Assembly: GCA_965203465.1 (NCBI GenBank)
Contig: CBDBCR010000003.1
Coordinates: forward strand, 768,001 to 832,000
Reading direction: 5' to 3'
Length of the DNA stretch: 64,000 bases
DNA from: Nitrosopumilaceae archaeon
GTDB taxonomy: Archaea > Thermoproteota > Nitrososphaeria > Nitrososphaerales > Nitrosopumilaceae
A program made the position numbers and the translations under genes. Positions 1,430-26,446 of this stretch are shown piece after piece; within the stretch, counting starts at the first letter, position 1; every line of letters starts with the position of its first letter. The notes below the pieces were generated by a model that was not told where the DNA came from, made no database searches, and saw nothing but the letters and a program-made list of their open reading frames with translations.

Positions 1430-1957
1430 TCACAATTTGCCGGGAAAAACGAACTTGTTCCACACGTACCTGAACGATCCGTTCTGCGACTTTGCGGTCT
1501 TTACGTCGAATTCCTTGAGCGTCTCCATCATAAAGTCGTATCTGGACTTGAATTTTTGAGGCTTCAATGCGTCAAACTCTTCCTTGGTTATGCCGTCCGT
1601 GCTTGACTTGTACCGGAAGCCCAGCTTCCGGGCGGCGGCGTTCCCTATGCCGGCCAGATACCAGCTTTCGATCTCGGTCCGGACGATGGCTATGCGGGAT
1701 TCGTCGGCGTTCGGGATCTTGCGTTTGAGTTTTTCCTTGCTCTTGCCAAAGCACGTATGGGGCAAGTCTGAATCTGCGAGCACGATGTAGGGGGAGCCGT
1801 TGCGGTTCAGGCCCTCTATGTACCGTTTGTTTGAATCCGGGCGTTGGGTCGCGTAAAAGTAGGGCTTTATTCGGTATTTTGAGAGTTTGGTACCGAACAC
1901 CTTCTTAAAAAACCGTGCATCGTCCCGGCCCTCCAACAGCACGTGCAACGTCTTCAT
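1430..1957 (-). CDS. TOPRIM-like nuclease partner (DUF4276/DUF4435-like)
   Basis: VLLEGRDD, VLADSD and RTEIESWYLAG motifs. Abuts the ATPase gene; paralog at 12218..12766. Confidence 0.7.
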   Translation of the reverse strand: MKTLHVLLEGRDDARFFKKVFGTKLSKYRIKPYFYATQRPDSNKRYIEGLNRNGSPYIVLADSDLPHTCFGKSKEKLKRKIPNADESRIAIVRTEIESWYLAGIGNAAARKLGFRYKSSTDGITKEEFDALKPQKFKSRYDFMMETLKEFDVKTAKSQNGSFRYVWNKFVFPGKL

Positions 1958-3238
1958 CTAATCACCCAGCAGGCACTGCACATGCATCTCCCCTATGTCC
2001 ATCTCGCTTTCCAAGAACGACTGCACCTCGCTCTCCTCGGATGGGCGCGTGATGAGCGAAGAGCCCGAATCGCCCCTGCTTATCAGCAGGAGTCGGTCTA
2101 TTCCCGATTGCCTCACGATTTCGGGGCTGTGCGTTGTGATGATGATCTGTTTGCTGGACGATGCGTCCTTCATCATGTCCACCATACCCGAAAGCAATGC
2201 AGGGTGCACGCTCCTTTCTGGTTCTTCGATCACGGCGAGCTGCGCGTCTTCGAAATACAGCGCCACGACCAGCGCTACCGCGTTGGTAGTGCCGTCCGAT
2301 ACCAAAGCTGCCGGCAGATGCTTGCCTTTGGAATAACTCTCCTCCGTCATAAACACCAAGGACTTGTCCACCGTGCTTTTGACGCCAAGGGACTTTACGA
2401 ACGGGAGTATGTCGGATGTCAAGTTGTTGAATTGTCTTCTTTTTTCAGCGTTTGACAGTATATCCCTCAGCACTAGCGGAAGGTTGGAACCGTCGGTCTC
2501 CAGTCCGAGCCTGCCCCCTATGGCGGAGGGCCGTTTTGCTAGTTTTGGGGCAAAGTCGTAGATTTCAAGCTGGCTGAAGAAATAGCCTACCCACGGGAAC
2601 ATGATATCTACGACTATGTGCGATTCCAAAATGGACTTGTTCTTGGCGGTCTTTGATCCGTATCCGTACACTGTCCTGTATAGATTCAGTTGTTTTTTGG
2701 ACACGATGTCGATGGGAAAGTCGGGCTCGAAGAACAGCTTGCCGTTTTCCGACTTTATGTTCAGTATGCCGTCTATGCGCCCTTTCTTGTTGGTGCCGTC
2801 TATGCGCCCTTTCTTGTTGGTGCCGGTCATGTAAAAACGCCACGCGTCGGACAGGATCTTGAACCCCGACCTCTGGCCCATCTCTATTTCGAAACTCCAT
2901 TTTACGTGCGTGTTGTGGAGCACGTATTGTTGGTTGGACAGATTTCCGGGGAGCGGTATTTCCGGAAAGTCTATTTCCAGCTCGATCGACATGCGGTTGT
3001 CGCCGTTGAAATTCCGCACGTATTCGATCCCTCCCTGGATTGCCAGCGCGTCGGCCAGTCCCCCGCGCATGTCTTTGAGAAACTGAAAGATCTGCCCAAA
3101 GTTGGACTTGCCCGAAGCGTTAGAGCCCACTAGCACATTGAATTCTTTGAACTCAACGTCCAAATCTACAAAGCTCTTGAAATTGTGCACCTTCAGCCGC
3201 TTCATGAACGCCTCGCGCATGAGGTGCCGGCCCGTCAC
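1958..3238 (-). CDS. ABC/AAA_21-type ATPase (RecF/AriA-like)
   Basis: VHNFKSF, Walker A GSNASGKSN, signature VSDGT, Walker B VIEEPE, H-switch TTHS. Confidence 0.85.
   Translation of the reverse strand: MTGRHLMREAFMKRLKVHNFKSFVDLDVEFKEFNVLVGSNASGKSNFGQIFQFLKDMRGGLADALAIQGGIEYVRNFNGDNRMSIELEIDFPEIPLPGNLSNQQYVLHNTHVKWSFEIEMGQRSGFKILSDAWRFYMTGTNKKGRIDGTNKKGRIDGILNIKSENGKLFFEPDFPIDIVSKKQLNLYRTVYGYGSKTAKNKSILESHIVVDIMFPWVGYFFSQLEIYDFAPKLAKRPSAIGGRLGLETDGSNLPLVLRDILSNAEKRRQFNNLTSDILPFVKSLGVKSTVDKSLVFMTEESYSKGKHLPAALVSDGTTNAVALVVALYFEDAQLAVIEEPERSVHPALLSGMVDMMKDASSSKQIIITTHSPEIVRQSGIDRLLLISRGDSGSSLITRPSEESEVQSFLESEMDIGEMHVQCLLGD
2767..2825. repeat. 27-bp in-frame tandem duplication (GTNKKGRID x2)
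   Basis: tgccgtctatgcgccctttcttgttgg is repeated at 2767-2793 and 2794-2820. Confidence 0.9.
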
Positions 3239-3587
3239 TACAATTAATATCTATACCGCGATCCCGGATTCCGGCAAATCCTGGTGAGCCGGGGCCCGGT
3301 GCGGAGGTACGGCCCCGTCGATCGGGCGTTTTCACGCCGGCTGCGGCCGGATCCGGCCCCGGGCCCCAAGCGCCCGAATCCGCAGCTCTCCGCGGGGGAG
3401 TTCGCCCCCACGGTTTAAGTGAGGCGCGCAGAAAAGGCCGGCAGTGAAGGTCAAAGTAAACGTCAACGTCCTCCCCTTCGGGCACTACAGGACGGAGGAG
3501 GCGCAGTCCGAATCGACCGTCGAGATTGCCCCGACCCCCATAATAAAAGACTACACGTCGGGTTCTGTGTAATCAGCGAGACCCGGC

Positions 3588-4709
3588 CTAGCCCGCGTGG
3601 AGCCGGTGCAGGGCCGCGTTCTGGATCAGCGTCTTCCAGCGATCGGGCCCGTCTATGTCTATCAAGGCCGCGTCCGAGGGCGTCCGGCCGCCCAAGCCGC
3701 CGTGCTTTTTGACGCAGTTGTAGTGGGCCTGGAACCCCGGTATCAGCGGCGTGTGGAACTTCTTGAGGCCCCGGAAATTCACCTCGCGCTCCCGCACCGT
3801 CCCGTTGAGCCGTTCCATCTTGTTGTTGTTCATCTCTTTCCGCAGGTGGATGTACCGCCAGTGCTGGGTATCGGGGCCGAACACCCTGATGCTCGACTTC
3901 ATGTAGTTGGGCAGCCCATCGGTGACGAAGTGGGCCGGCGCCTTACCCAGCTTCCGCTTGGTGGCCTCCAGCAGGTTGTCCGCGTCGTGCTGGAACTTGG
4001 TCTCGGCCATCTCGGCGGCCAGCCAGAACCGCGTGTCGTCCTCCATGGAGCCGAACAGGTACTTTAGTTCGCCGGCTATCTTGATCCAGACCTCGTCGGC
4101 CCGGGCCATGGCCCGGTCGGAGGTGCGCGGCACCACGTCGTGCAGGTATTCGGATACGGACTTTGAATACTCGGCTACCCAGTTGTATATGGTCTTGTGT
4201 GATATTTTGACGCCCTCGGTCTCGAACTCGTCCGCTATATCCCGGACGCTCATGCCCTTGTAATACGTCCGGACGGCCCGGGTTATCGTCTTGGGGCGAA
4301 AGTGCTTCTTTTCGAACCCCGGGTTGTCTGTAAACCTGCGGCCGCAGTCGCCGCACTTGAGCAACTGCACCGGGCCGGCCTTGGTCTTGCGCGTGCCCTT
4401 CTTGGCTACGTTGCCCGAGTCGCAGAACTTGCACACTTGGCGGCCGGCCCTTTCCATGATCCGGAACGGCGCCCGCTTGAAGAGTTGGTTGCGGCAAAGC
4501 GCCCGCAACACAACCTTGATGTGCTTGCAGTCGGCCCCGCGGGTCCGGTGATCCGGGCACTCGCAGACCAGCCCCGAGCCGGTGCGCTTCACCTCGTACC
4601 TCTTGTCCGGGTCCGTCTGCGAGCGGACGCTGAACGTGTCCGGATCTGACTGGCCGGCCGCGCCGGCCTGCTTGAGCATCTCGACTGCGCGGGCGGTGCG
4701 GGCGTTCAT
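3588..4709 (-). CDS. IS6-family DDE transposase with N-terminal SWIM and Zn-ribbon
   Basis: SWIM CECPDH...CKH; CKFC...CGDC; HTH SVRDIA...SHKTIYNWV; DDE triad RADEVWIK / VTDGLPNY / NNKMERLNG. Confidence 0.88.
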   Translation of the reverse strand: MNARTARAVEMLKQAGAAGQSDPDTFSVRSQTDPDKRYEVKRTGSGLVCECPDHRTRGADCKHIKVVLRALCRNQLFKRAPFRIMERAGRQVCKFCDSGNVAKKGTRKTKAGPVQLLKCGDCGRRFTDNPGFEKKHFRPKTITRAVRTYYKGMSVRDIADEFETEGVKISHKTIYNWVAEYSKSVSEYLHDVVPRTSDRAMARADEVWIKIAGELKYLFGSMEDDTRFWLAAEMAETKFQHDADNLLEATKRKLGKAPAHFVTDGLPNYMKSSIRVFGPDTQHWRYIHLRKEMNNNKMERLNGTVREREVNFRGLKKFHTPLIPGFQAHYNCVKKHGGLGGRTPSDAALIDIDGPDRWKTLIQNAALHRLHAG

Positions 4710-15380: not shown

Positions 15381-18300
15381 CTATTCTGCCGGTCGTGGAA
15401 GATTTCGCCCCGTGCCTGTCTGGTGCGTGGAGGAGGCGGAATTTTCACGCCCGCGGGAATGGGCGCGCGCAAGGCGCCTGTACGCCACCACCGCCGCGGC
15501 CGGCGAGCCGAGCAGCGCGGCGTTGAACAGTATCACCAGCGATCCCAAAAGGGCCACCTGCTCTTCGGAGCCGGGCTCTGCCAGCGACATTGCGCCAAGG
15601 GACCAGAGGAGAGGCTGCAGCGAGGCCCGGACGAGCTCCTTGAACGCCGGGCTCTGCCTTTCCAGGTCGGCGACTGCCGGCGAGAACGCATAGTAGAGCT
15701 GGTTGAACCCGGACAGAAACGCCGCCCCGGCGCCGGTCGAGTCCACCGTGCCGTCGCGCAGCTCGCGCAGGGCCTGCACCTGCGGGGCCATCTCCGTCCC
15801 GTACACTGCAGTAGCTATCAGGCACCCGCCGCCGTCGTCGGCCCGGACGGGCTCGCACGTGCCGCCCTCGGAGAGGAACGTGCCCGGCCCGCACACGAGC
15901 TCTTGTACTGCCGGCTCCTGGGTGACTGGCTCTTGCGCGGCCGGCTCTTGCGTGATCGGCGCCCGGGGCTCGGGCGCGGGCGGCGCCGGCTCTGCGGGCG
16001 CCTCCCTTGCCGGCTCGGCCGGCTTGGGCTCGGCTGCCGGCTCCTGCTGCGGGGCCGGCTCCGGCGCCGCCGGCGTCAGCGTGGCGGCTGCCGGCGGCGC
16101 GGGCACCTCGAAGGTCCGGGTGCCCGTGCACGAATCGATGTTTATCGATTCGGCGTCCGAGACTATGGTGCGGGCCGAGACGAGCGTGGCAGATATCCGG
16201 GCATAGTATTCCGAAGAGTCGAACGGCGCGGTAAAGACGCCGTACCCGGGCGCGTCGCCCGACGGCGTCATCCTGACCAGCCCGGCGACCGGCATGCGGA
16301 CTGTCACGTCGAGCGAGCCGACCGCCGGGCCGGCCACCACGGTGATCAGGCGGGTGTCGCAGTCCCACGAGGCCGACCGTATGTAGACCGCATCTGCGCC
16401 GGACCTGTCGAGGGTGGTGCCCGAGACGCTGCTGCCTCCCCCGCCACCGCCGCCTCCACCGCCTCCACCGCCGGTGTAGGCGGGCTGCCGCGGCGCGGGC
16501 GCGGGAGCTGGCGTGGGAGCTGGCACGCGCTCCAGCGTGGCCGTCCCGAACTGCGAAAAGTGCTTCGTCCATATCGAGTCTAGCGGATCCGAAAAGCACG
16601 CCAGGTTGTCGTGTACGGACGCGTCCGCGTCGAGCGCCGAGATGAACGCGTCGGCGCTCTGCCACGTGCCCGCCGCGCTGCAGGCCGGTATGAGCCGCAC
16701 CGCGCCGGCCGTGTCTATGGAAAAGACCACCGTCCCGGTCCCTATGGCGCCCTCGCCGAGGGCTATGCGGACGGGCCTGTCGAACGCAAGATCGCGCGCC
16801 GGATCGCCCACCTGCCACACCACGGCGTCCGAGAGGGCGTACTGCGCGCCGTACGACGATATGTCCACGTCCGGCGCCGGGCGCGTCGTCGGCGCGGACA
16901 GCTCTATGCGTATGTTCTCGGCCGCCCCCACCAGGGCCGTGCGCGGGGCAAAGTACACGGCCGGGGCGCGCTCGTCGGCGGAATCGACGGCCACGGGCCT
17001 GTCGGGGAACGTGAGCGACGAGAGCACCAGCGCGGAATCGCCCCTGAGCGTTATGGCAGAGTACAGCTGCCGCGTCAGATCGACGGGCGCTGCCGGCGCG
17101 AACGATACGTCCATCCTGTAAGAGTCCGACGGGCCGACCGCGTCGAACAGGTGCATCGAGAGGCCCTGCACGGCGACGGTCGCCGAGGCCAGTTTCAGCC
17201 CTATCCGGTCCGCAAAGCCGGCGGCAAACTGCCCCGAATCGTACTCCAGCACGAGATCCCGGGCGGACAGGTCCAGCGGGGACGAGGCGACGAGATCGAC
17301 GCTCGGCGAGCCGGTCACCGCGGGGTGGCCCGAGACGGTGCGCGCGCCCGCCGAGGCGCCCGACAGCGTCCATACCAGGGTAGACGAGGAGGCCTCGGCG
17401 GTGACCGGCTCGCTGAACAGCGCCGTTATGGTGTTGCGGTTCTTTATCTCCGCAGAGACGAGCGACGGGGGCGTGGTGTCCTTTCTTACGTACAGCTCGG
17501 CGGACGGCCGCGACTCGTTGGAGGCCGGATCCGTCGCCGTGGCAGTCACCGAGTTGAGCCCCTCTGAAATGTCCAGCGTCACCGACCAGGCGCCGGCCGC
17601 GGCGGTCGCCGTCTTTGTCGAATGTACCGTAGTGGCGCTGCCCGTGCTCACCCTGCCCGTCACGGTGACCAGCGAGCCGTCCTCGGCGGTGCCCGATACG
17701 GCGTGCGTCGAGGAGCTGATCAGCGCCCGCGCCGTCGATATGACCGGGGGGGCCGGCGGCATCGTGTCCAGCACGACCGTCTGGGCGGCCGAATCTGCCG
17801 ACGCGTTGCCGGCCGCGTCGAGCGCCCGCGCGGAGACGGAGTTGGACCCTTCGGCCAGCGTCAGCTGCGCGCTCCAGTCGCCGGACGCGTCTGCGGTGGC
17901 GCTCGGGCCCGCGGTGCCGCCCAGCACGAGCCGGACGGTCGAGCCGGGCGCGGCGGTGCCCGACACGGCCAGCGAGGCGCTGTTTGTCAGGGCCGGCAGC
18001 GAGTTGACCGACGGCGCCGGCGGCGGGATGCGGTCGGATGCCGGACCCGTAAAGTCTGCCAAGGCGTTGCCCGCGTCGTCGCCGATGTTGCCCCCAGAGT
18101 ACGCCACGGTGATCTGGGGATCCAGGCTGGCAAGATTCTGCGTGAGGCGCAGGGTGGCCGTAGACGAGAGGCCCGTCTCGCTTATGCCCCCGTAAGAGCT
18201 GACCGCGGCGGGATCGCCGGTTATCGACCAGCCGAACGGCGCGTTGCCGGCGTGGAGCAGTTTGGCGCCTTCCGAAAACGCCACGGTCAGCTGGTTCCTG

Positions 18301-21300
18301 GCGGATGCCTGGACCGAGACGACGGACGGCGGGATCTTGTCCGTTACGGGGAAGGTTCCGGCCTCCATCGATACGGACCGGTCGTCCTCTATCAGGCCGG
18401 TTGTCGCGTAGGATGCCGTCGTGCCGGTCGGGTCCGTGTCGGGCAGGTTGCCGTCCAGCGTGAGCACCAGCGCGCCCGTGAGGGACGAAAGGGAGGTGGT
18501 GGCTCTGACCTGCAGCGAGCCGGCGTCCGTGCCGCCCAGGGTCCACGCGGCGGCGGCCTGGGCGTCGGTGGCGGTGCTGCGCACCGGCCTGTCGAACGTA
18601 ATCTTTATTGAATTCACGGAGACGGCCTCGGCCGACGATACAGACGGCTTGCTCGTGTCCCTTTGGAGCACGATCAGGCCGGCGGAGTCGGACAGCACGG
18701 GCCTGCCCGAGGTGTCCTCTATTGCGTCCCACTGGTTGGTAAGCCTGACCGGCTCGTTCGATCTTGCGAACGCGAGCGCGGCCGAATCCACCGCGAAAGT
18801 GGCCGTCAGCGAGCTTGTCACCATGCTCGGCTGTAGCGTCGAAGAGACGCCGTTCCGGACATCCACCACCACGTACTGCGTCAGCGGCAGCGAGTTGCCA
18901 GAGCCCTCCAGGGCGAACCTGGACGGCTCGCCGCTCTGCAGCACCACCGTCTCGTTGAACCTCACGGACAGCAGAGACGACTGGTGGTCCAGCGCCGCCG
19001 AGCTTATGCGCGGCGGCGTCCTGTCCGGCTCCACGAAGGTAAGCGACGTGAACGGGACCGCCTCGTTGGGCTCCTGCACGTACTTTACGGCGCCCGCCTG
19101 AATCTCCAGCTGCAGGGCCTTGGACAGCAGGTCTTGGCGTATGCTCTCGTCCAGCCTTATCACGAGCCGCGCGCCGTCCAGCGAGTTCAATACCGACGAG
19201 GTTCCAGTCGAGCTGGACAGCGCGTGGAAGACGGTCGGCGCCGACTGCTCGGTCCCCGCCAGGACGAACTTTTCAAGGTCAACCTCGGAGACGTCGATTG
19301 GCCTGTCGAAGACGGCCACCAGCGCGCTCGGGCCCAAATACAGGCCCGCCTGCCTGAAGACGGGCTTTATCTCGGTCTTTGTTATCGTATTGTCCGCCGA
19401 GGCGGCGATGCCGCGCGAGGCCACGTTGGTGAACGCCGAGGCCGCAATGTCCAGCTCTGCCGAGGCTATGTTCATGACCGTGGTCTGGAGCGTCGGCGAC
19501 AGCCTTATGCGCACCTTTATGTCGTCGCTCTCGGTCAGTACCGTCGAGCCGGTCAGCGCGTGCTGGTTGGCCTGGCCGGTCTCCGAGATGTACACGTCGC
19601 CCAGCTTTGCGCTCGTGATGGCCGAGACGTCCATAATGTCGTCGAATTTGAGCTCGAGCACCGTGCCGCCCACCAATACGGCCGACTCCAGCAGCGGGTC
19701 GGTCGTGTCCGGTATCCCGCCTATCCGGAATATCCCGATGCCCTCGTTGGCAAAGGCCGGCTGCGTGCCGCGAGAGGCCACGGCGGCGTACACGTACCCG
19801 CCCGTCTCGAAGGCGGCCACGCCCTGGGGCCACACCAGCTTTATCTTGTCGATCGTCACGGCGTTGCCGGATGTGTCTTTGTGCGCGTTGGTGTACCAGT
19901 TGCGCAGATCCCCGTTCGTCGGGTTTGTCGGATCCGACAGGTTGGCAAGCTGTATGCCGTCGCATCCGTTGGTGGCCCTAAAGTTGGTGTGTCCCAAGCC
20001 GTTCTCGCAGGTGAACACCGCGTACGTAGAGCTGCCCAGCGTGAAGACGTCCACGCCGAAGGCGCCGCGCAGCTCCGTAAAGCTGCCGCCCGTATTCTGG
20101 TCCTGCTGGGCCGAGGCCCGCGTCGGATTCGTCGCGCTGCTCACGTTCAGCACTGTAAAGCCCGTATCGCCCGCATCGGCGCCCTTGCCGGCCCCGGTCG
20201 CCACCACGTACGGCGTGTCGTTCACCACGAACGACTTTATCCCTATCGCCCGGTCCAGGTACGTGTTGGCGTCGTCTGTAACCGTGCTCTGGTGCACCAA
20301 GTTGTTCGGATCCTCCACGTCTATGATTACCACGGCGTTGGCCCCCGGCGCGGCGACGGCCACGTGCGTCCTAGTGCCTATCTCGAACGCGTCTATCCCG
20401 TACGGGTTTCCGAGCGCGGCGACATCGCTCTTGGTTATGCTGCCCATCACGGCCGGGTTGACGGGATCCGTGATGTCGACCACCGAGACGGCCCCCTCCG
20501 TCCTAGCCGTGACCGCCGCGTACGTCTTGCCGTTGTCCGTATAGACCGTCACGCCCCTAACGAGCCCCAGGTTCAGGGTGGCGTCGTCCCGCACGCTGGA
20601 GGTCTGCACCGGGTTGGACGGGTTCGTGACTTCCAGTATGCGGAACCCCCCCTTGCCGCTCGCCAGTATGAGGTAGGTCTTTTCGTTGGCCCCCGATCCG
20701 AGCTTGAACGACTCCAGCTCGTACAGCTGCTTGAGCTCCGCGTCCTTGAACTCCGTCGTATAGTCTGACGAGACCGACGAGGCCGGCGTCGGCTCGAGCG
20801 GGTTGGTCACGTCGATGATCTGCACGCCCCCCTCCAGGGGGATCTGGGCCGTTCCCGTCCCGTACGCGGTCACGGCGATGTACGTCCTGCCGTCTATCTC
20901 AAAGTCCTCCACGAAGAGCGGCGTCTCGAGCGTGGAGAACCCCAGCGCCCCGTCCTGGATCACGCCCCTCGCTAGGAACGCCAGCGTGGTCGTGTCCGTA
21001 AACTCTATCATCTGCAGCGCGTCGTCGTCCTGCGCCGATATGGCCGCGTACGTCTTGCCGCCTACCGTGATCAGGTCGATGCCGGTGGCCCCCGCCAGCC
21101 CGCTGCACACGTTCCCTATGGAATCCGATTCCTCGTCGCGCGTGTCCGAGACGGCCCGCGGCGAGGCCGGGTTCGACAGGTCCACGAACTGCACGCCGTT
21201 GTCGTTCCACGCGGGCACGAACAGGTACGGCGTGCCGCCCAGCGACTCGATGTGCAGTCCCTGCGCGCCCGCGAGCGTGTTGAAGCCGCCCCGGTCGTCC

Positions 21301-22367
21301 GTCATCGTGGCCACGATGTTCGGGCTGGCCGGGGTGCTCAGGTCTATCACGTGCACCACGGTCTTTTCCCCCGAAGATGCCGAGACCACCGCGTACGGCT
21401 TGCCGCCGATGGTCGTCGTCACCACGTCTTTGGGCTCCGATATGGACTGCGCCCACGTGTTGGACGAGAACACCAGCGACGGAGAGGACGGGTTGGCCAG
21501 GCTCACTATCTGCAAGTTGCCGTCGTGGTCGGCGTCGAGCGTTTTGTTGGTCAGCTCGCCGTTGACGGCCACCACCGCGTGCTTTACGGCGTTGATCTCG
21601 ATGACGTCGATCGCGTTGCGGTACCCCTCCAAGCTGGACAGCCACGTCCCGTCGGACTGCCAGACGAACGACGGCGAGGCCGGCGTCGATACGTCTATCA
21701 CGGTCAGGCCGCCCGGCAGCAAATTCCCAAAGTCGCCCGCCGATATGGCGTACGTGTTGTTGCCCGACGAAAAGACCGCGCTCGAATACGCCCCTCCCAG
21801 GTGGTCGTATTTCGTGTCCGTGTTCGGATCAGAGTCCACGTCGGTGCCCTGCCCCACGAAAGAGACGAACGCGGGCGCCGTCGGATCCGTAATATCTACC
21901 AGCTGCAGGCCGGAGCCGCGCGCGCTGCTTGCCGAGGCGGGCGCTTTTTCGGTGGGAGAGAAGAAGCCCAGCCCCAGGCGCCCGGGCGAGGTGACTAGCA
22001 TGTATTTTTTGCTGTCGCCCGTCACGCTGAACGACTCTATGTGGGTGGGGTCGTAAAGCCCCCACTCGTTGGCGTTGCCCGCGTCGTTGTTGCGCTGCTC
22101 CCAGACGATGTCCATCTCGTCCTGATCCGTGATGTCAAAGACGCCCAGCGCGTTGTCGCCAGAGGCCGTCGCGATCGCGTAGATTTTGCCGTTGTGCTCG
22201 ACCAGCAGCACGTCCTCCGGGGACCCCAGATAGTGTATGGTGCCCTCGTCGTCGTCGATGTCGGCCACGTACCGGAACGCAGGGCCGGTGTCGAACGTCT
22301 GGGCCGTCGCTGCCGGCACAAACGCCACGGAGACGGCGGCCAGCGCCATTATAATGCCAATCTTCAA
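15381..22367 (-). CDS. Giant secreted surface protein (2328 aa): LVIVD-like propeller repeats, Ig-like domains, CFI-box-CTERM
   Basis: Signal peptide; many (V/L)QxxDxSxPxxP repeats; DTTPP/DRIPP Ig-like junctions; Gly- and Pro-rich linkers; GGGCLIATAVYGTEMAPQVQALRELRD followed by a TM helix. Confidence 0.85.
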   Translation of the reverse strand: MKIGIIMALAAVSVAFVPAATAQTFDTGPAFRYVADIDDDEGTIHYLGSPEDVLLVEHNGKIYAIATASGDNALGVFDITDQDEMDIVWEQRNNDAGNANEWGLYDPTHIESFSVTGDSKKYMLVTSPGRLGLGFFSPTEKAPASASSARGSGLQLVDITDPTAPAFVSFVGQGTDVDSDPNTDTKYDHLGGAYSSAVFSSGNNTYAISAGDFGNLLPGGLTVIDVSTPASPSFVWQSDGTWLSSLEGYRNAIDVIEINAVKHAVVAVNGELTNKTLDADHDGNLQIVSLANPSSPSLVFSSNTWAQSISEPKDVVTTTIGGKPYAVVSASSGEKTVVHVIDLSTPASPNIVATMTDDRGGFNTLAGAQGLHIESLGGTPYLFVPAWNDNGVQFVDLSNPASPRAVSDTRDEESDSIGNVCSGLAGATGIDLITVGGKTYAAISAQDDDALQMIEFTDTTTLAFLARGVIQDGALGFSTLETPLFVEDFEIDGRTYIAVTAYGTGTAQIPLEGGVQIIDVTNPLEPTPASSVSSDYTTEFKDAELKQLYELESFKLGSGANEKTYLILASGKGGFRILEVTNPSNPVQTSSVRDDATLNLGLVRGVTVYTDNGKTYAAVTARTEGAVSVVDITDPVNPAVMGSITKSDVAALGNPYGIDAFEIGTRTHVAVAAPGANAVVIIDVEDPNNLVHQSTVTDDANTYLDRAIGIKSFVVNDTPYVVATGAGKGADAGDTGFTVLNVSSATNPTRASAQQDQNTGGSFTELRGAFGVDVFTLGSSTYAVFTCENGLGHTNFRATNGCDGIQLANLSDPTNPTNGDLRNWYTNAHKDTSGNAVTIDKIKLVWPQGVAAFETGGYVYAAVASRGTQPAFANEGIGIFRIGGIPDTTDPLLESAVLVGGTVLELKFDDIMDVSAITSAKLGDVYISETGQANQHALTGSTVLTESDDIKVRIRLSPTLQTTVMNIASAELDIAASAFTNVASRGIAASADNTITKTEIKPVFRQAGLYLGPSALVAVFDRPIDVSEVDLEKFVLAGTEQSAPTVFHALSSSTGTSSVLNSLDGARLVIRLDESIRQDLLSKALQLEIQAGAVKYVQEPNEAVPFTSLTFVEPDRTPPRISSAALDHQSSLLSVRFNETVVLQSGEPSRFALEGSGNSLPLTQYVVVDVRNGVSSTLQPSMVTSSLTATFAVDSAALAFARSNEPVRLTNQWDAIEDTSGRPVLSDSAGLIVLQRDTSKPSVSSAEAVSVNSIKITFDRPVRSTATDAQAAAAWTLGGTDAGSLQVRATTSLSSLTGALVLTLDGNLPDTDPTGTTASYATTGLIEDDRSVSMEAGTFPVTDKIPPSVVSVQASARNQLTVAFSEGAKLLHAGNAPFGWSITGDPAAVSSYGGISETGLSSTATLRLTQNLASLDPQITVAYSGGNIGDDAGNALADFTGPASDRIPPPAPSVNSLPALTNSASLAVSGTAAPGSTVRLVLGGTAGPSATADASGDWSAQLTLAEGSNSVSARALDAAGNASADSAAQTVVLDTMPPAPPVISTARALISSSTHAVSGTAEDGSLVTVTGRVSTGSATTVHSTKTATAAAGAWSVTLDISEGLNSVTATATDPASNESRPSAELYVRKDTTPPSLVSAEIKNRNTITALFSEPVTAEASSSTLVWTLSGASAGARTVSGHPAVTGSPSVDLVASSPLDLSARDLVLEYDSGQFAAGFADRIGLKLASATVAVQGLSMHLFDAVGPSDSYRMDVSFAPAAPVDLTRQLYSAITLRGDSALVLSSLTFPDRPVAVDSADERAPAVYFAPRTALVGAAENIRIELSAPTTRPAPDVDISSYGAQYALSDAVVWQVGDPARDLAFDRPVRIALGEGAIGTGTVVFSIDTAGAVRLIPACSAAGTWQSADAFISALDADASVHDNLACFSDPLDSIWTKHFSQFGTATLERVPAPTPAPAPAPRQPAYTGGGGGGGGGGGGGSSVSGTTLDRSGADAVYIRSASWDCDTRLITVVAGPAVGSLDVTVRMPVAGLVRMTPSGDAPGYGVFTAPFDSSEYYARISATLVSARTIVSDAESINIDSCTGTRTFEVPAPPAAATLTPAAPEPAPQQEPAAEPKPAEPAREAPAEPAPPAPEPRAPITQEPAAQEPVTQEPAVQELVCGPGTFLSEGGTCEPVRADDGGGCLIATAVYGTEMAPQVQALRELRDGTVDSTGAGAAFLSGFNQLYYAFSPAVADLERQSPAFKELVRASLQPLLWSLGAMSLAEPGSEEQVALLGSLVILFNAALLGSPAAAVVAYRRLARAHSRGRENSASSTHQTGTGRNLPRPAE

Positions 22368-22849
22368 AGGTCACACCCCCCCCCCCAGCCTAGGTGCGGG
22401 CATGATACGCGCTCAGCAAGCTCGTCCACGGGCAGTTTCCTCGATTGGGCATATAAATATCAGATCTCGGGCTGTTGCCCGCCGGCGGCGCTACCGCATG
22501 CCAAAGTCCGGCCCCGCCCGATCGCCTCGCGCCGTTGCACGGCGCTGTAAGGGCGGCCCGGCGTCAGCCTCCGCGCCGCTACGAAAAAACCCGCGCCGGT
22601 TCAATCGCGCGCCGCCGCCTGCGCCGAGCCCTGCAGGCGGCGTTCAGCTGCGCGCAAAATCGGTCGCGCGCACCAAAAGCGCGTGCTCTGACGCTGCCGC
22701 CCGCAGTATCTTCGCGCGGCGCGGTTTCCGGAGGATCCGCCCGGAACGTGCTCTCCGAGGGGCGCCCGGCGTCCCCGTCTATGAGACCCGCGTCCCTCGC
22801 CGCGCCAGACCGACGCCGCCGCGTCGCCTGCGGATGTTTTGCCCGCCAT

Positions 22850-23743
22850 GTGATCCCGCATGTGTCCGGCAAGCAGCAGGGCGAGCAGGACGTTAGTTGT
22901 GTGATCTGTTTTTTTGTACGGTTTTTTCTTGGATACGAATGTGCCGGCAAAGTCGCTGCGGTTTTTTGCGTCCGTGCGCGTGATGGTGACCGCGTTGCCT
23001 AGATCCAGCATGCGGCCGACGGACTCTGCGATGTCGGCTATGATCTAGCCCGGACTGTATCTGCCGTTGTCGAATTTGCCCGCCTTCATCGCGGTAAGTT
23101 TGGGAAACGCGCCGAACGCTTCTGCGATGTCGTTCATGGTAGATCCCCGGATCAGCAGCCCTGTGTCATGGGCCTGCTTGGCAACCTCTATCTGGCGGTT
23201 GCTCCGAAGGCCCACGGTGCCCAGCGCCGAGGCCGTAAGCTTGTCGCCCAACAGCCATCCGCGCGTCAGGATGCGCATGTCCGCCGGCGTCGCAAAGTCG
23301 AGCACCTCGTAGCCGGCCTTGACGGTTCTTGAGCCCATTGCAATCTCGGCATCGCAGAAAAAATCCACCTTGACGTGCGTTCTGTTTCCGAAACAAGAAT
23401 CAAAGAACGCCTTGTAAGATACCAAGTTCTTGAGCGGGTATGGTTTTTTGGGTTCGTGCAGTTCGAATGATATCTCTTCCGGCATCCAGCCGTCCCCCCG
23501 CATGGCAGCGTCTACCGCCGCTACGGGCAACGTGGCGGCAAGATCCACATCCAAGCTCACCCGGCCCGCCCGCATAGAACGACATGCACAGGCCCCCTCT
23601 TGTGACGCAGTCGAGCCGGCCGGCTATGTGGCTCCAACTAAGTCCATCACGAATTTTTCGACCATGTCGCCGTGTGCGAACTTGTACGCGTCGGTCATTG
23701 CCGCGATGGCTCCCTTTTCTAGCGAGCGTGCAAGACGCAACAC
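22850..23743 (-). pseudogene. AbiEii-like nucleotidyltransferase toxin, disrupted (3' end approximate)
   Basis: Three frames join to ...DMVEKFVMD / HIAGRLDCVTRGGLCMSFY / RVSLDVDL...LLGDKLTA...EVAKQAHD. An in-frame TAG at 23045-23047 is followed by in-frame continuation. Confidence 0.65.
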
Positions 23744-23744
23744 G

Positions 23745-25640
23745 TCAGGCGCCCCCCATGTACGATTCTATCTTGGAAAACCCCGCCCTCTTTGCAAGGG
23801 ACCTTATCCTGTCCGGATCCGCCAGGCCCCGATCCACGAGATCCTCCAGAACGCCGTCCAGCTCGTCCCGGTACATGGTGACCCCGTTCCTGACCACCTC
23901 TAGGCACAGGTCAAACCACGCCCTGTCCGGAAGCGCCCACGTGGAAGCGATCCTCCCCGCGCCCTCCCTGACCGCCACGAGCCTGCGCGTCTTGGCGAGA
24001 TCGAGCACCGTCCTGATCTGGTGCGGCTTTGGGTTGAGCACGGCGTCGAACTCGTCCTCGATCTCTTCGAGCAGCGCCTGGCCCGCGCCCCGCGCGGTCC
24101 TGACCGTGTACACGGCCTGCCTGTAGCCCTTGCTCAAAAACGACGACAGGGTGCTGATGCCGGTGAACTGGAACTTGCGGTCAAACCCGGCCACCAGCCG
24201 GTCGTGCAGCCCTACGAGCTCGTCCGCTAGAGCATAGTCTGGAATGCGATCCGGCACCGTGTGGACGCCGTCGCCGTGCGCCTTGTTTCGGAGCGACGCG
24301 TGCATGAATCTTGTCCATCTCTTGTTGCGCTCCGCAAGGAACGACTCGGCGTCCGGCGGCCCCGACGCAAGAAGCTCCGCCTCTATGCCTATCCAGCCCA
24401 GCAGGAAGAGGGGGTTTCTAAACGCCTCGAAGGCGCGGCTGTCTCTGCGTATGGTTATCGAGGCCTTGTCTGGGGAGGCGCGCATGCTGTATATCCCGTC
24501 GGGGCCGTCTTCGAACCCGACTTTCATATCGAATCCGTTTCTGGACGCCGAAAACCCGTCGGCGCCTGCCATGAGCTTCCGGGCCGGCTCTGCGGACATC
24601 CTGGCCCCGAACGGGCCCGGATTGGGCCCGAAGGCGCTGCTGACGTCGTGATCCTCCGGCGCGCCGCGCAGGCAGGCGCGCAGCACCGCGAGCACGGATT
24701 CGTCGTTTTTGAAGCTTTCCACGGCCCGGACGTACTCGGGCGACTCTTCTATAAAGCCGGTCTTGTGAAAATTTACCGGCACGTGATCCAGCGACACGCT
24801 CCCGATTATTCCGGACACGGCAGGGTGGCGGCGTACGCCGAACTTGTCGAACGCCCTGATCAACCTCCCCCTCCAGTACAGGTGTATCCCGTAGTCCCCC
24901 TTTACGGACCTTTTTTGCAGCATGCCGACCCAGCCGGTTATTCTGTCGTTTCCGCCGAGGGATATCGATACTTCGCGCCTGGTGCCCTCTTGTATGGCCG
25001 GCGTTGCCGGAACGCACTTGCGCGAGTTTATGTGTATGTGCGTACGGCCATCGGCGAGGTGCGGTCCGTACCGCACGCCGAACCGCTTGGCAAAGATCGA
25101 CACCTGGTTGGGGTACAGGGGGACTCTCGTCTTGGCGATCTCTACGGTCGTGCCGTGCCTGCTCTCGGACGTCATTCCTTCGGTGATCGCAAAGTTGCGC
25201 CATCCCGACGAGCCGTCTTTGAGCCACTCGTCCTCGTCGTATCTTGCCACAAACTCCCTTTCAGATCCCGCGGCCGTGGTGGTAACTGCAAACGCCGCGC
25301 CTAGGCTGGAGCAGGAGCTCTTCATGCCGATCCCGAATTTGCCCAGGCCCTCGCCCGAATGTTTGGCTATCGTCAGCGCGTCGATCAGGTCGTCGTAGCC
25401 CATGCCGCGCCCGTCGTCGCTTACCGTGATCTTTTTTTCCGCAAAATCGAGCCTCACCTGTACCCGCACGCTGCCGGCCCGCGCGTCGATCGAGTTGTCC
25501 ACCAGTTCTGCCACCGCCTGCTCTGTACGGTACCCGGTCATGCCCAGCTTGCTGATCAGGCTCTTGTCGGGCGTAATGTCCACCTCATGGCGCCTGAGCT
25601 GCTGCCTGCCTGCCGGACCTGCAGCATTGTGGTGTTCCAC
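23745..25640 (-). CDS. MORC-type GHKL ATPase (+S5 domain) with AbiEi-like C-terminal region
   Basis: AELVDNSIDA, DDGRGM, GKFGIGMK and HGTTVEI (GHKL); GIHLYWRGRLI...VNFHKTGF (MORC S5); C-terminal WALPDRAWFDL resembles the AbiEi T/S-PE(R/K)A..D motif. Confidence 0.8.
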   Translation of the reverse strand: MEHHNAAGPAGRQQLRRHEVDITPDKSLISKLGMTGYRTEQAVAELVDNSIDARAGSVRVQVRLDFAEKKITVSDDGRGMGYDDLIDALTIAKHSGEGLGKFGIGMKSSCSSLGAAFAVTTTAAGSEREFVARYDEDEWLKDGSSGWRNFAITEGMTSESRHGTTVEIAKTRVPLYPNQVSIFAKRFGVRYGPHLADGRTHIHINSRKCVPATPAIQEGTRREVSISLGGNDRITGWVGMLQKRSVKGDYGIHLYWRGRLIRAFDKFGVRRHPAVSGIIGSVSLDHVPVNFHKTGFIEESPEYVRAVESFKNDESVLAVLRACLRGAPEDHDVSSAFGPNPGPFGARMSAEPARKLMAGADGFSASRNGFDMKVGFEDGPDGIYSMRASPDKASITIRRDSRAFEAFRNPLFLLGWIGIEAELLASGPPDAESFLAERNKRWTRFMHASLRNKAHGDGVHTVPDRIPDYALADELVGLHDRLVAGFDRKFQFTGISTLSSFLSKGYRQAVYTVRTARGAGQALLEEIEDEFDAVLNPKPHQIRTVLDLAKTRRLVAVREGAGRIASTWALPDRAWFDLCLEVVRNGVTMYRDELDGVLEDLVDRGLADPDRIRSLAKRAGFSKIESYMGGA

Positions 25641-25900
25641 GACGTGTAAACGGGGTGTTTTTATTTAGGTTTTTCACACCGCGTTTTCCGTGTGTAGTTT
25701 TGGACTGTTTCTATAACATTTTTTGTTCGTTATAACGAATTTCAGCGCCTGCCGCCCACGTCGGGGCAGTCCGGCCCGCCGGAGGCTCCCGCCGGGCAGG
25801 TACGGTGCCCGGCCGCGCGATCGGCGCCGAGGCGCGCCTGCCCGCCTCTTGTATCGAAATTAGGTCCGCCTAAGTTCGAGCGGCCGGCTGCTTGCGCTCC

Positions 25901-26446
25901 TCATCCGGCGGCTTCGGCCCGGCACCCGGTCCACGCCTGGTCTGCAAACTCGGATTCCGAGCAGAACCGCGTGTACTGGCCCGAATGGCCCTCGCGTATT
26001 AGCAGCTCGTTGATGCTCGGCATCTGCGGCCCGTCGCAGTACACCAGGCTCAGGTGGCGCCCGAACCTGTCCGTCGGCTGCGGGTCGTTCTGGTCGTAGG
26101 CCACCTGCCTGTCCAGGCACCTCTCCTTGACAAAGTCGGTCGCCTCGTCAAAGCCCGGCTCGCCGCGCTCGGGCGTGTCCACCAGGACCAGGCGGTGGCT
26201 CTGGCCGTCCAGGTGGACTGTGTCGCCGTCTACCACCCGGGTGACCGTCGCCTGCAGCACGTCGTCCCCGGCGGGCGGGCCGGCCGGCCCGCCGTCCAGG
26301 ACCAAGCTCGCCCCCGCGGCCGCGGCGGCCCCCACGGCCAGGCCGGCCGCGAACGCCGCGGCCAGCCGGAACCTTGCCACGCGGCGCGCGGCCCTGCGCC
26401 GCGTTAAATACGCGCGGATCGGCCTTTCGGGCGGGAAAATCTGCAA
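25901..26446 (-). CDS. Membrane-anchored thermonuclease (SNase-like)
   Basis: VTRVVDGDT, RLVLVDTPE, DRFGRHL and INELLIREG motifs, with an N-terminal TM segment. True start probably ~26380. Confidence 0.88.
   Translation of the reverse strand: MQIFPPERPIRAYLTRRRAARRVARFRLAAAFAAGLAVGAAAAAGASLVLDGGPAGPPAGDDVLQATVTRVVDGDTVHLDGQSHRLVLVDTPERGEPGFDEATDFVKERCLDRQVAYDQNDPQPTDRFGRHLSLVYCDGPQMPSINELLIREGHSGQYTRFCSESEFADQAWTGCRAEAAG

Follow-up and report, generated by a model that had tools for sequence, protein, structure and literature searches.

A probable AbiE-type cassette of Nitrosopumilaceae in which a MORC ATPase module replaces the winged helix of the antitoxin

AbiE and MenA/MenT are toxin-antitoxin (TA) and abortive-infection systems of type IV, for which type VII is now proposed, and MORC ATPases studied elsewhere undergo ATP-driven dimerisation and clamp DNA. 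Here we describe a locus that combines both, in a stretch of 64,000 nucleotides (nt) from a Nitrosopumilaceae archaeon (contig CBDBCR010000003.1 of GenBank assembly GCA_965203465.1, forward-strand positions 768,001 to 832,000), which we call the window. A gene of 631 amino acids (aa) joins a MORC-type ATPase module to a C-terminal domain related to the Pfam family DUF6577, and it is followed by the remains of a nucleotidyltransferase (NTase) gene of the AbiEii type. The pair resembles AbiE (Streptococcus agalactiae, Lactococcus) and MenA/MenT (Mycobacterium tuberculosis) in its bicistronic order, in which the antitoxin gene precedes a DUF1814/AbiEii polymerase-beta (pol-beta) NTase, in the NTase motifs hGG, RxSxDxD, DK and KxxxD, in having the antitoxin C-terminal domain encoded immediately before the toxin gene, and in tolerating toxin loss. 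It differs from them in that a MORC GHKL and S5 ATPase plus linker stands for the winged-helix N-domain (~630 versus ~200-300 aa), in that the C-terminal domain falls in DUF6577 and not in the AbiEi_1 model, in its longer NTase (~375 aa), which has additional helices at both termini, and in its archaeal hosts, the Nitrosopumilaceae. We consider it fairly probable that this is an AbiE-type (AbiEi/AbiEii, MenA/MenT) two-gene cassette in which the winged helix of the antitoxin has been replaced by a MORC GHKL and S5 ATPase with a linker of ~150 aa.

In the AbiE system, the C-terminal domain of AbiEi alone is enough to neutralise AbiEii, the winged helix serves autorepression, and phage resistance can be conferred (Dy et al. 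2014). AbiEi, on binding AbiEii, causes it to auto-phosphorylate on T65, to which MenT1 T39 and MenT3 S78 are equivalent, and thereby shuts off its activity as an NTase (Arrowsmith et al. 2026, preprint). Prokaryotic MORCs have been proposed to survey DNA in systems resembling restriction-modification (R-M) (Iyer et al. 2008; Tiamat preprint). The prokaryotic ATPases that Iyer, Abhiman and Aravind (2008) describe as MORCs and paraMORCs share with the present protein the GHKL and S5 module, the MORC S5 motif and a patchy, mobile distribution, and the paraMORCs also share C-terminal effector or adaptor fusions (nuclease, TIR). Unlike here, the partners reported there are helicases, methylases and nucleases, and only three archaeal MORCs are reported; the main text of that paper contains neither 'nucleotidyltransferase' nor 'toxin', and no NTase or toxin-antitoxin partner appears in it. 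The available text of the Tiamat preprint likewise contains neither 'AbiE' nor 'nucleotidyltransferase'. Our literature search returned no paper describing a MORC-AbiEii pairing, and examples of such neighbourhoods may be present in the supplements to Iyer et al. 2008 and PMC7848895. It also returned no paper mentioning DUF6577 and none combining AbiEi with GHKL; the papers containing both MORC and AbiEii name MORC once each in their accessible text and bear unrelated titles. One paper notes AbiE in sponge Thaumarchaeota, with no link to an ATPase in the accessible part.

The fusion gene is intact and comprises the following features, which were delimited by its open reading frame (ORF), Pfam and homologues:

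23745..25640, minus strand: intact MORC-DUF6577 fusion gene, 631 aa (ORF, Pfam, full-length homologues of 560-658 aa, 28-sequence alignment)
25140..25532, minus strand: GHKL (Bergerat-fold) ATPase domain, residues ~37-167 (Pfam HATPase_c_3 and HATPase_c; invariant columns)
24714..24944, minus strand: S5-fold domain, residues ~233-309 (Morc6_S5 score; MORC S5 motif; K293)
24258..24713, minus strand: middle region, residues ~310-461 (no Pfam match; conserved columns)
23748..24257, minus strand: C-terminal domain with DUF6577 homology (C-terminal part of this Pfam family), residues 462-631

A first-pass annotation, made from the letters and their ORFs alone, had described a 631-aa protein with complete GHKL and S5 motifs, and this description was borne out. 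In the window copy, HATPase_c_3 matched residues 37-128 with 77.8 bits (cut-off 25) and HATPase_c reached 37.7 bits (cut-off 26.4), and the GHKL motifs E45xxxN49, D75xGxG79, G100xxG103xG105 and G163-T164 are all retained. Alignment of the family revealed that E45/N49, D75/G79, G100/G103/G105, G163/T164, K293 and G251/R259/L260 are invariant in 28/28 members, and the window copy keeps every column that is invariant across this alignment. The S5 signature that unites MORCs, GhXhhpXXRhl (Iyer et al. 2008, section 4), is present as G251-I-H-L-Y-W-R-G-R259-L260-I; at its 'p' position, 25 of the 28 members have a polar residue, and the window copy and two more have W. PF17942 is a precomputed annotation in several relatives, and K293 is presumably the conserved basic residue of the S5 domain. 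Since the GHKL motifs and the G, R and L of the S5 signature are invariant, the N-terminal two thirds are, as judged from sequence, a bona fide prokaryotic MORC module, and one that looks catalytically competent. The middle region conserves F404, N409-P410-L411, E420 and R438-N439. Since homologues start only around residue 17-20, the true start of the protein may lie ~16 codons past the GTG at 25640. Matches in the PADLOC and NCBIfam scans of the fusion were confined to the N-terminal GHKL domain (MzaB best, also TmtA, MutL and sacsin). MzaB of the MZA anti-phage system is thus alike in being the best match of this domain and unlike in that ~130 residues only are involved; an identity with MzaB was rejected, the match scoring 52.3 bits against an NCBIfam cut-off of 850 over residues 31-161 only.

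The C-terminal 170 aa of the fusion are, by profile comparison, clearly homologous to the antitoxin-type domain of DUF6577. Pfam DUF6577 (PF20217) matched 15/28 family members, at best with 5.5e-10, over model positions ~36-200 of 204; homologue P0023 scored 27.3 against the cut-off of 27.8, and a same-genus copy reached 38.3, above it. Using hhalign, we aligned the MORC C-domain to seven stand-alone DUF6577 proteins with a probability of 99.5% (E 2.3e-22) and to the C-domains of 69 stand-alone proteins with 99.94% (E 8.4e-37). The domain holds the motif ..REx7TWAxP(E/D)(K/R)AW(L/F)DL.., and searching its profile against 1.84 billion representatives recovered 193 proteins at E <= 0.001, which comprise fusions of ~620-670 aa and many proteins of ~230-310 aa with the domain at the C-terminus. 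Seven of ten scanned profile matches were above the DUF6577 cut-off, with winged-helix matches to AbiEi_4 or TrmB. A single-sequence query with residues 440-631 found no short relatives, which the profile query did find. The Pfam models of AbiEi, including AbiEi_1, did not match the C-terminal ~170 residues of the fusion. Neither did we find a winged helix-turn-helix (wHTH) match anywhere in the fusion, and the DUF6577 match begins at about model position 36, past the winged helix; in domain order, the MORC module stands in place of the DUF6577 winged helix.

Searching 401 genomes of the phylum with the DUF6577 model revealed stand-alone genes in other archaeal families. The five stand-alone proteins scanned, from other Thermoproteota archaea (L038, L040, L042, L043, L051), are 272-280 aa long and all exceed the DUF6577 cut-off; an AbiEi_4-type N-terminal winged helix was matched in 4/5 (two above cut-off), and an AbiEii gene above cut-off lies directly 3' in 5/5 loci. 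They therefore share the C-terminal domain and the downstream AbiEii with the fusion, from which they differ in length, in starting with the winged helix and in lacking an ATPase. Because the stand-alone members have an AbiEi_4-type winged helix and a downstream AbiEii, DUF6577 is, by build and gene context, an AbiEi-type antitoxin family. Whole DUF6577 proteins aligned to 17 canonical AbiEi_1-type proteins of the same class with 96.3% (E 2e-9), and an alignment free of winged helices covers 54 columns around a common E(K/R)xxVD..A.RR stretch. Shared ancestry of the DUF6577 and canonical AbiEi C-domains is plausible. The first-pass annotation had called the C-terminus AbiEi-like: this holds by architecture and context, via DUF6577, while homology of the C-domain itself to AbiEi is suggestive only. 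A C-terminus unrelated to AbiEi is at odds with the DUF6577 homology (hhalign 99.5-99.9%). A sequence search of the PDB gave 0 matches for the C-domain profile, and for the DUF6577 profile winged-helix proteins only, at profile positions 1-95. Names from the ESM Atlas for residues 465-634 of P0023 (DUF6551 and AbiGii; 0.92/0.91, with merely 152-157 shared features) were taken as noise. In a quick tree, all 28 fused domains fall on one side of a branch within the stand-alone DUF6577 diversity (Shimodaira-Hasegawa-like approximate likelihood ratio test, SH-aLRT, 92), which is not decisive for a single origin; the window copy is sister to a paralogue in its own genome (L002).

The second gene of the pair is an NTase of the AbiEii/DUF1814 pol-beta type, as judged by the scores and motifs of its orthologues. 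Intact orthologues are 364-432 aa long; the Pfam AbiEii cut-off (PF08843) was exceeded by 6/6 of those scanned (32.8-46 bits), with PADLOC AbiEii matches down to 1.2e-29. Among 20 NTases, G54-G55, R68/S70/D72 (R-x-S-x-D-x-D), D173-K174, and K195 and D199 (KxxxD) are invariant. The copy in the window is broken as follows:

22665..23743, minus strand: AbiEii/DUF1814-type NTase pseudogene (tblastn of five intact orthologues; NTase profile; PADLOC AbiEii)
23624..23640, minus strand: lesion 1, a frameshift, after which the original frame ends in a TAG at 23626-23624 (tblastn, raw sequence)
23560..23570, minus strand: lesion 2, a frameshift in a G/C run by which the first frame is regained immediately ahead of RVSLDVDL (tblastn, raw sequence)
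23045..23047, minus strand: lesion 3, an in-frame TAG within conserved sequence (..RYSPG*IIADIAESV..) (tblastn, raw sequence)
22775..22808, minus strand: lesion 4 (probable), a frameshift ahead of the C-terminal tail (weak tail match; strain variant)

The spacer between the two genes is 1 nt (stop TGA at 23747-23745; GTG at 23743-23741 opening the NTase frame), in agreement with the earlier placement of the NTase gene within 2 bp. tblastn with five intact orthologues gave matches from ~23740 to ~22808 at 34-41% identity (E 3e-49 to 2e-75), with high-scoring segment pairs in different frames. The first frame runs from 23743 to ~23640 (..VEKFVMD..); after lesion 1 the homology moves to another frame at ~23654-23565 (..HIAGRLDCVTRGGLCMSFYAGG), the first frame resumes near 23565 (RVSLDVDL.. 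to ..RYSPG), and past lesion 3 the homology persists in the same frame to ~22808. The C-terminal tail matches weakly in the third frame (22775-22665, E 0.08-0.28), and one further frameshift is probably present near the C-terminus. Catalytic motifs are still legible (TRGG, RVSLDVDL, GDKLT and AKQAHD). Taken alone, the 176-aa ORF at 23045-23575 scored 16.4 with Pfam AbiEii, below the cut-off of 22.5 because the gene is broken, and 1.8e-7 with PADLOC AbiEii. When a profile of 20 intact NTases was searched against the archaeon's own genome, the pseudogene site scored 242.6 bits, with two TAG inside, and no other copy of this NTase subfamily was found. These results confirm the proposal of a broken pol-beta-like NTase recognisable by TRGG, R.SLDVDL and DKL, which the six intact orthologues place in the AbiEii type, and of a true pseudogene. 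The two frameshifts and in-frame stop first listed are all there, probably as an undercount given the likely third frameshift; similarly, the span 22850-25640 first assigned to the pair holds the fusion gene, and the NTase remains reach beyond its left edge to ~22665. With three to four lesions, the toxin gene is dead in this genome and the fusion gene is intact. The local fusion can therefore act at most as an orphan antitoxin or ATPase.

Conservation of the pair was assessed in two overlapping samples, whose counts are not additive. Full-length MORC relatives were present in 37/401 sampled Nitrososphaeria genomes (35/223 in the same family, 1/78 in a second and 0 in the other 18), often as 2-3 copies per genome. 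Among 30 loci outside the window, 29 were assessable, one (L022) ending within the MORC gene. The NTase lies directly downstream as an uninterrupted ORF of 364-432 aa at 19/29 loci, is cut by the locus end or unclear at two (L033, L034), and is represented by remnants or carries a stop at five (L011, L014, L023, L024, L028), L028 being judged by eye from ~40 N-terminal NTase residues. Thus, an NTase or its remains was found 3' of the fusion at 26/29 loci, and at 39/42 assessable loci of the second sample. The latter came from a pattern scan across 185,579 species, each represented by one genome, and contains 43 loci, all with the MORC part upstream and all titled Nitrosopumilaceae, Nitrosopumilus, Cenarchaeum, Thaumarchaeota or Nitrososphaerota; the NTase was intact (full-length and stop-free) in 31, broken or reduced in seven, cut by a contig end in one, absent in three and not assessable in one. 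The search for intact two-gene loci in Nitrososphaerota that the first-pass annotation had called for hence shows the adjacency to be conserved (19/29 and 31/43 loci intact). A Nitrososphaerota origin is likewise borne out. Spacing between the two genes in relatives ranges from -11 to +24 nt where the longest ORF does not overshoot. We found no conserved third gene or defence island, flanking ORF families being common to at most 4/43 loci; therefore, the unit is a self-contained two-gene cassette in changing surroundings. At L028 (G335:C6), near-identical coding stretches lie on both sides of the MORC gene (~983-1441 and ~3387-4204), encoding ..ALPRP.AW.HPSNPRCSEGCISLA.. and ..PLPA.AFRPCGALKLGPVAVPL.. 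and interrupting the NTase after ~40 codons; they look like a repeated or mobile element inserted in the toxin gene.

By analogy with AbiE, the DUF6577 domain of the fusion would hold the adjacent NTase inactive. The candidate phospho-acceptor would be the Ser that is invariant in the R-x-S-x-D-x-D motif of the NTase, its mapping to MenT and AbiEii being by analogy. The MORC module may couple neutralisation to DNA or ATP state, such that invading DNA or energy collapse would release the NTase; if it targets tRNA like MenT and AbiEii, which add nucleotides to tRNA 3' ends, the freed enzyme would block translation and abort infection. Because the MORC module replaces the DNA-binding head and MORCs are thought to survey DNA, ATP- or DNA-gated neutralisation is the most attractive reading. 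In its fullest form, the Nitrosopumilaceae would possess a new class of defence cassette in which MORC, as a sensor of infection through foreign DNA or ATP state, sits on one polypeptide with an antitoxin domain that keeps a tRNA-targeting NTase of the AbiEii/MenT type phosphorylated and silent; we put this forward tentatively, as possible and still doubtful.

Several results weigh against an AbiE-type cassette with a MORC-fused antitoxin. Morc6_S5 scored 23.5 bits in the window copy, slightly below its cut-off of 26.2. The DUF6577 model did not match the window's own copy, the link running via family profiles. Without winged helices, DUF6577 and canonical AbiEi aligned weakly (20%, E 1.1e-3), and direct alignment of the MORC C-domain with canonical AbiEi gave <1% (E 0.2-0.25). 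No MenT, AbiEi or AbiEii chain in the PDB was matched by the NTase or C-domain profiles. No trace of an NTase was seen at 3/29 loci, namely L002 in the archaeon's own genome, L016 and L025. Finally, a defence role of the cassette is suggested by analogy.

The broken state of the local toxin could be questioned on the grounds that long-read assemblies often contain artefactual frameshifts in G/C runs and that this genome was assembled in 4 contigs only, the gene being really intact. We regard such errors as highly improbable. The same sequence crosses the lesions with 0 gaps in contigs of three other studies (X3, X7, X8), of which X3 covers the whole stretch but may be the own source of this DNA, X7 covers 23351-23882 and 23063-23377, and X8 covers 22964-23438 and 23478-23628. 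In addition, one lesion is a substitution-type TAG, and the adjoining 2328-aa ORF is unbroken. The matching contigs and the unbroken neighbour indicate that the lesions are not assembly artefacts. A strain variant from another study has eight indels, all within 22562-23639 and none in the MORC gene in the pieces listed, including 4 extra bases at 23634/23639 and 2 extra bases at 22806. An explanation by programmed frameshifting or by read-through of the stop was rejected in view of three to four separate lesions of differing kinds and the strain-to-strain indels. The decay is asymmetric, with the toxin lost and the fusion gene kept, as the toxin-antitoxin relation predicts: toxin loss is tolerated and antitoxin loss is not, so that an orphan antitoxin or ATPase is expected here. 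Consistent with this pattern, the best MORC match was stop-free at 6/7 broken-NTase loci of the 43-locus scan. Two strain variants coexist in some metagenomes (X7, X9; window 22500-25700). Compared to the window, X9 is ~91% identical in the NTase region (57 differences/657 bases plus indels) and has 6 differences/1517 bases in the MORC gene, a contrast that suggests a recombination boundary near the MORC/NTase junction.

Two other explanations concern what the ATPase is for. The cassette could be an ordinary addiction-type TA pair, with MORC a DNA-binding autoregulator or tether that has no sensing role and the unit persisting as a selfish element. Its variable contexts without conserved partners, its frequent multiple copies per genome and the repeated decay of its toxins would all fit, as would the canonical division of labour in AbiEi, in which autorepression is the task of the N-domain and the C-domain can neutralise by itself (Dy et al. 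2014). A ~460-aa ATPase with catalytic motifs invariant in 28 sequences is, however, an expensive stand-in for a winged helix of 60 aa, MORCs of prokaryotes are in other cases linked to R-M-type conflict systems (Iyer et al. 2008), and AbiE systems can give phage resistance (Dy et al. 2014); we therefore find the addiction pair unlikely, if worth keeping in view. We give still less weight to the converse, that MORC is the main actor (a DNA-directed ATPase, R-M-like or chromatin-type), with DUF6577 a general adaptor and the NTase a dispensable accessory. Three loci have the fusion without an NTase (L002, L016, L025), so the ATPase may have a role of its own; the paralogue at L002 adjoins a large divergent ORF without Pfam match, and here the MORC gene is intact after the death of the NTase. 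Against this stand the NTases or remains that follow the fusion in 26/29 and 39/42 assessable loci, the agreement of these NTases with the AbiEii model and the paired AbiEii gene next to each stand-alone DUF6577 protein examined, which together make a dispensable NTase quite improbable and leave the AbiE-type cassette as our preferred reading.

The archaeon's own genome and the surroundings of the pair offer further observations. Locus L002 (C1:63901-68727) contains the second intact MORC-DUF6577 gene (locus 1492-3339, plus strand; 615 aa, 57% identical), divergent from the large ORF (>476 aa, no Pfam match) and with a small ORF and a cobalamin-type methyltransferase-like ORF downstream of it. 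Two canonical AbiE loci, each with AbiEi_1 ahead of AbiEii, are also present in the genome, at C1:546307-547437 (L036/L037) and C2:131097-132379 (L035/L073); the AbiEii match on C1 is split across two open frames (model positions 2-70 and 99-180), and this canonical toxin may be broken too. A staphylococcal nuclease (SNase)-domain protein of 181 aa (33.6 bits, hydrophobic N-terminus) is encoded at 25901-26446, on the minus strand like the MORC gene and 260 nt upstream of it, and is not conserved at relatives' loci. Directly downstream of the pseudogene, the 2328-aa ORF (15381-22367, minus strand) is Ala/Thr/Ser/Pro-rich, with a predicted signal-like N-terminus, a poly-Gly run and a C-terminal hydrophobic segment, and probably encodes a surface protein. 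The G+C content is ~62% over the cassette versus 65-67% in the flanking 2-kb windows (window 22000-26000), which is compatible with acquisition from elsewhere.

Systems of the AbiE/MenAT kind occur widely. The natural fusion described here points to a concrete candidate trigger for the release of their toxins, an ATP- or DNA-dependent conformational change. To our knowledge, the activity of prokaryotic MORCs has so far been inferred from gene neighbourhoods only; with this cassette they would gain an effector other than restriction enzymes, and the uncharacterised family DUF6577 gains a role as an archaeal AbiEi-type antitoxin, as its build and context suggest. That the NTase has decayed repeatedly next to an intact fusion gene is a clear case of asymmetric toxin/antitoxin loss. 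The antiviral repertoire of ammonia-oxidising archaea is poorly known, and the cassette adds a candidate defence module for their marine and sponge-associated members. If the proposed gating is true, it would be the first ATP-driven DNA clamp to control a type VII toxin-antitoxin switch and would provide a functional read-out for prokaryotic MORCs.

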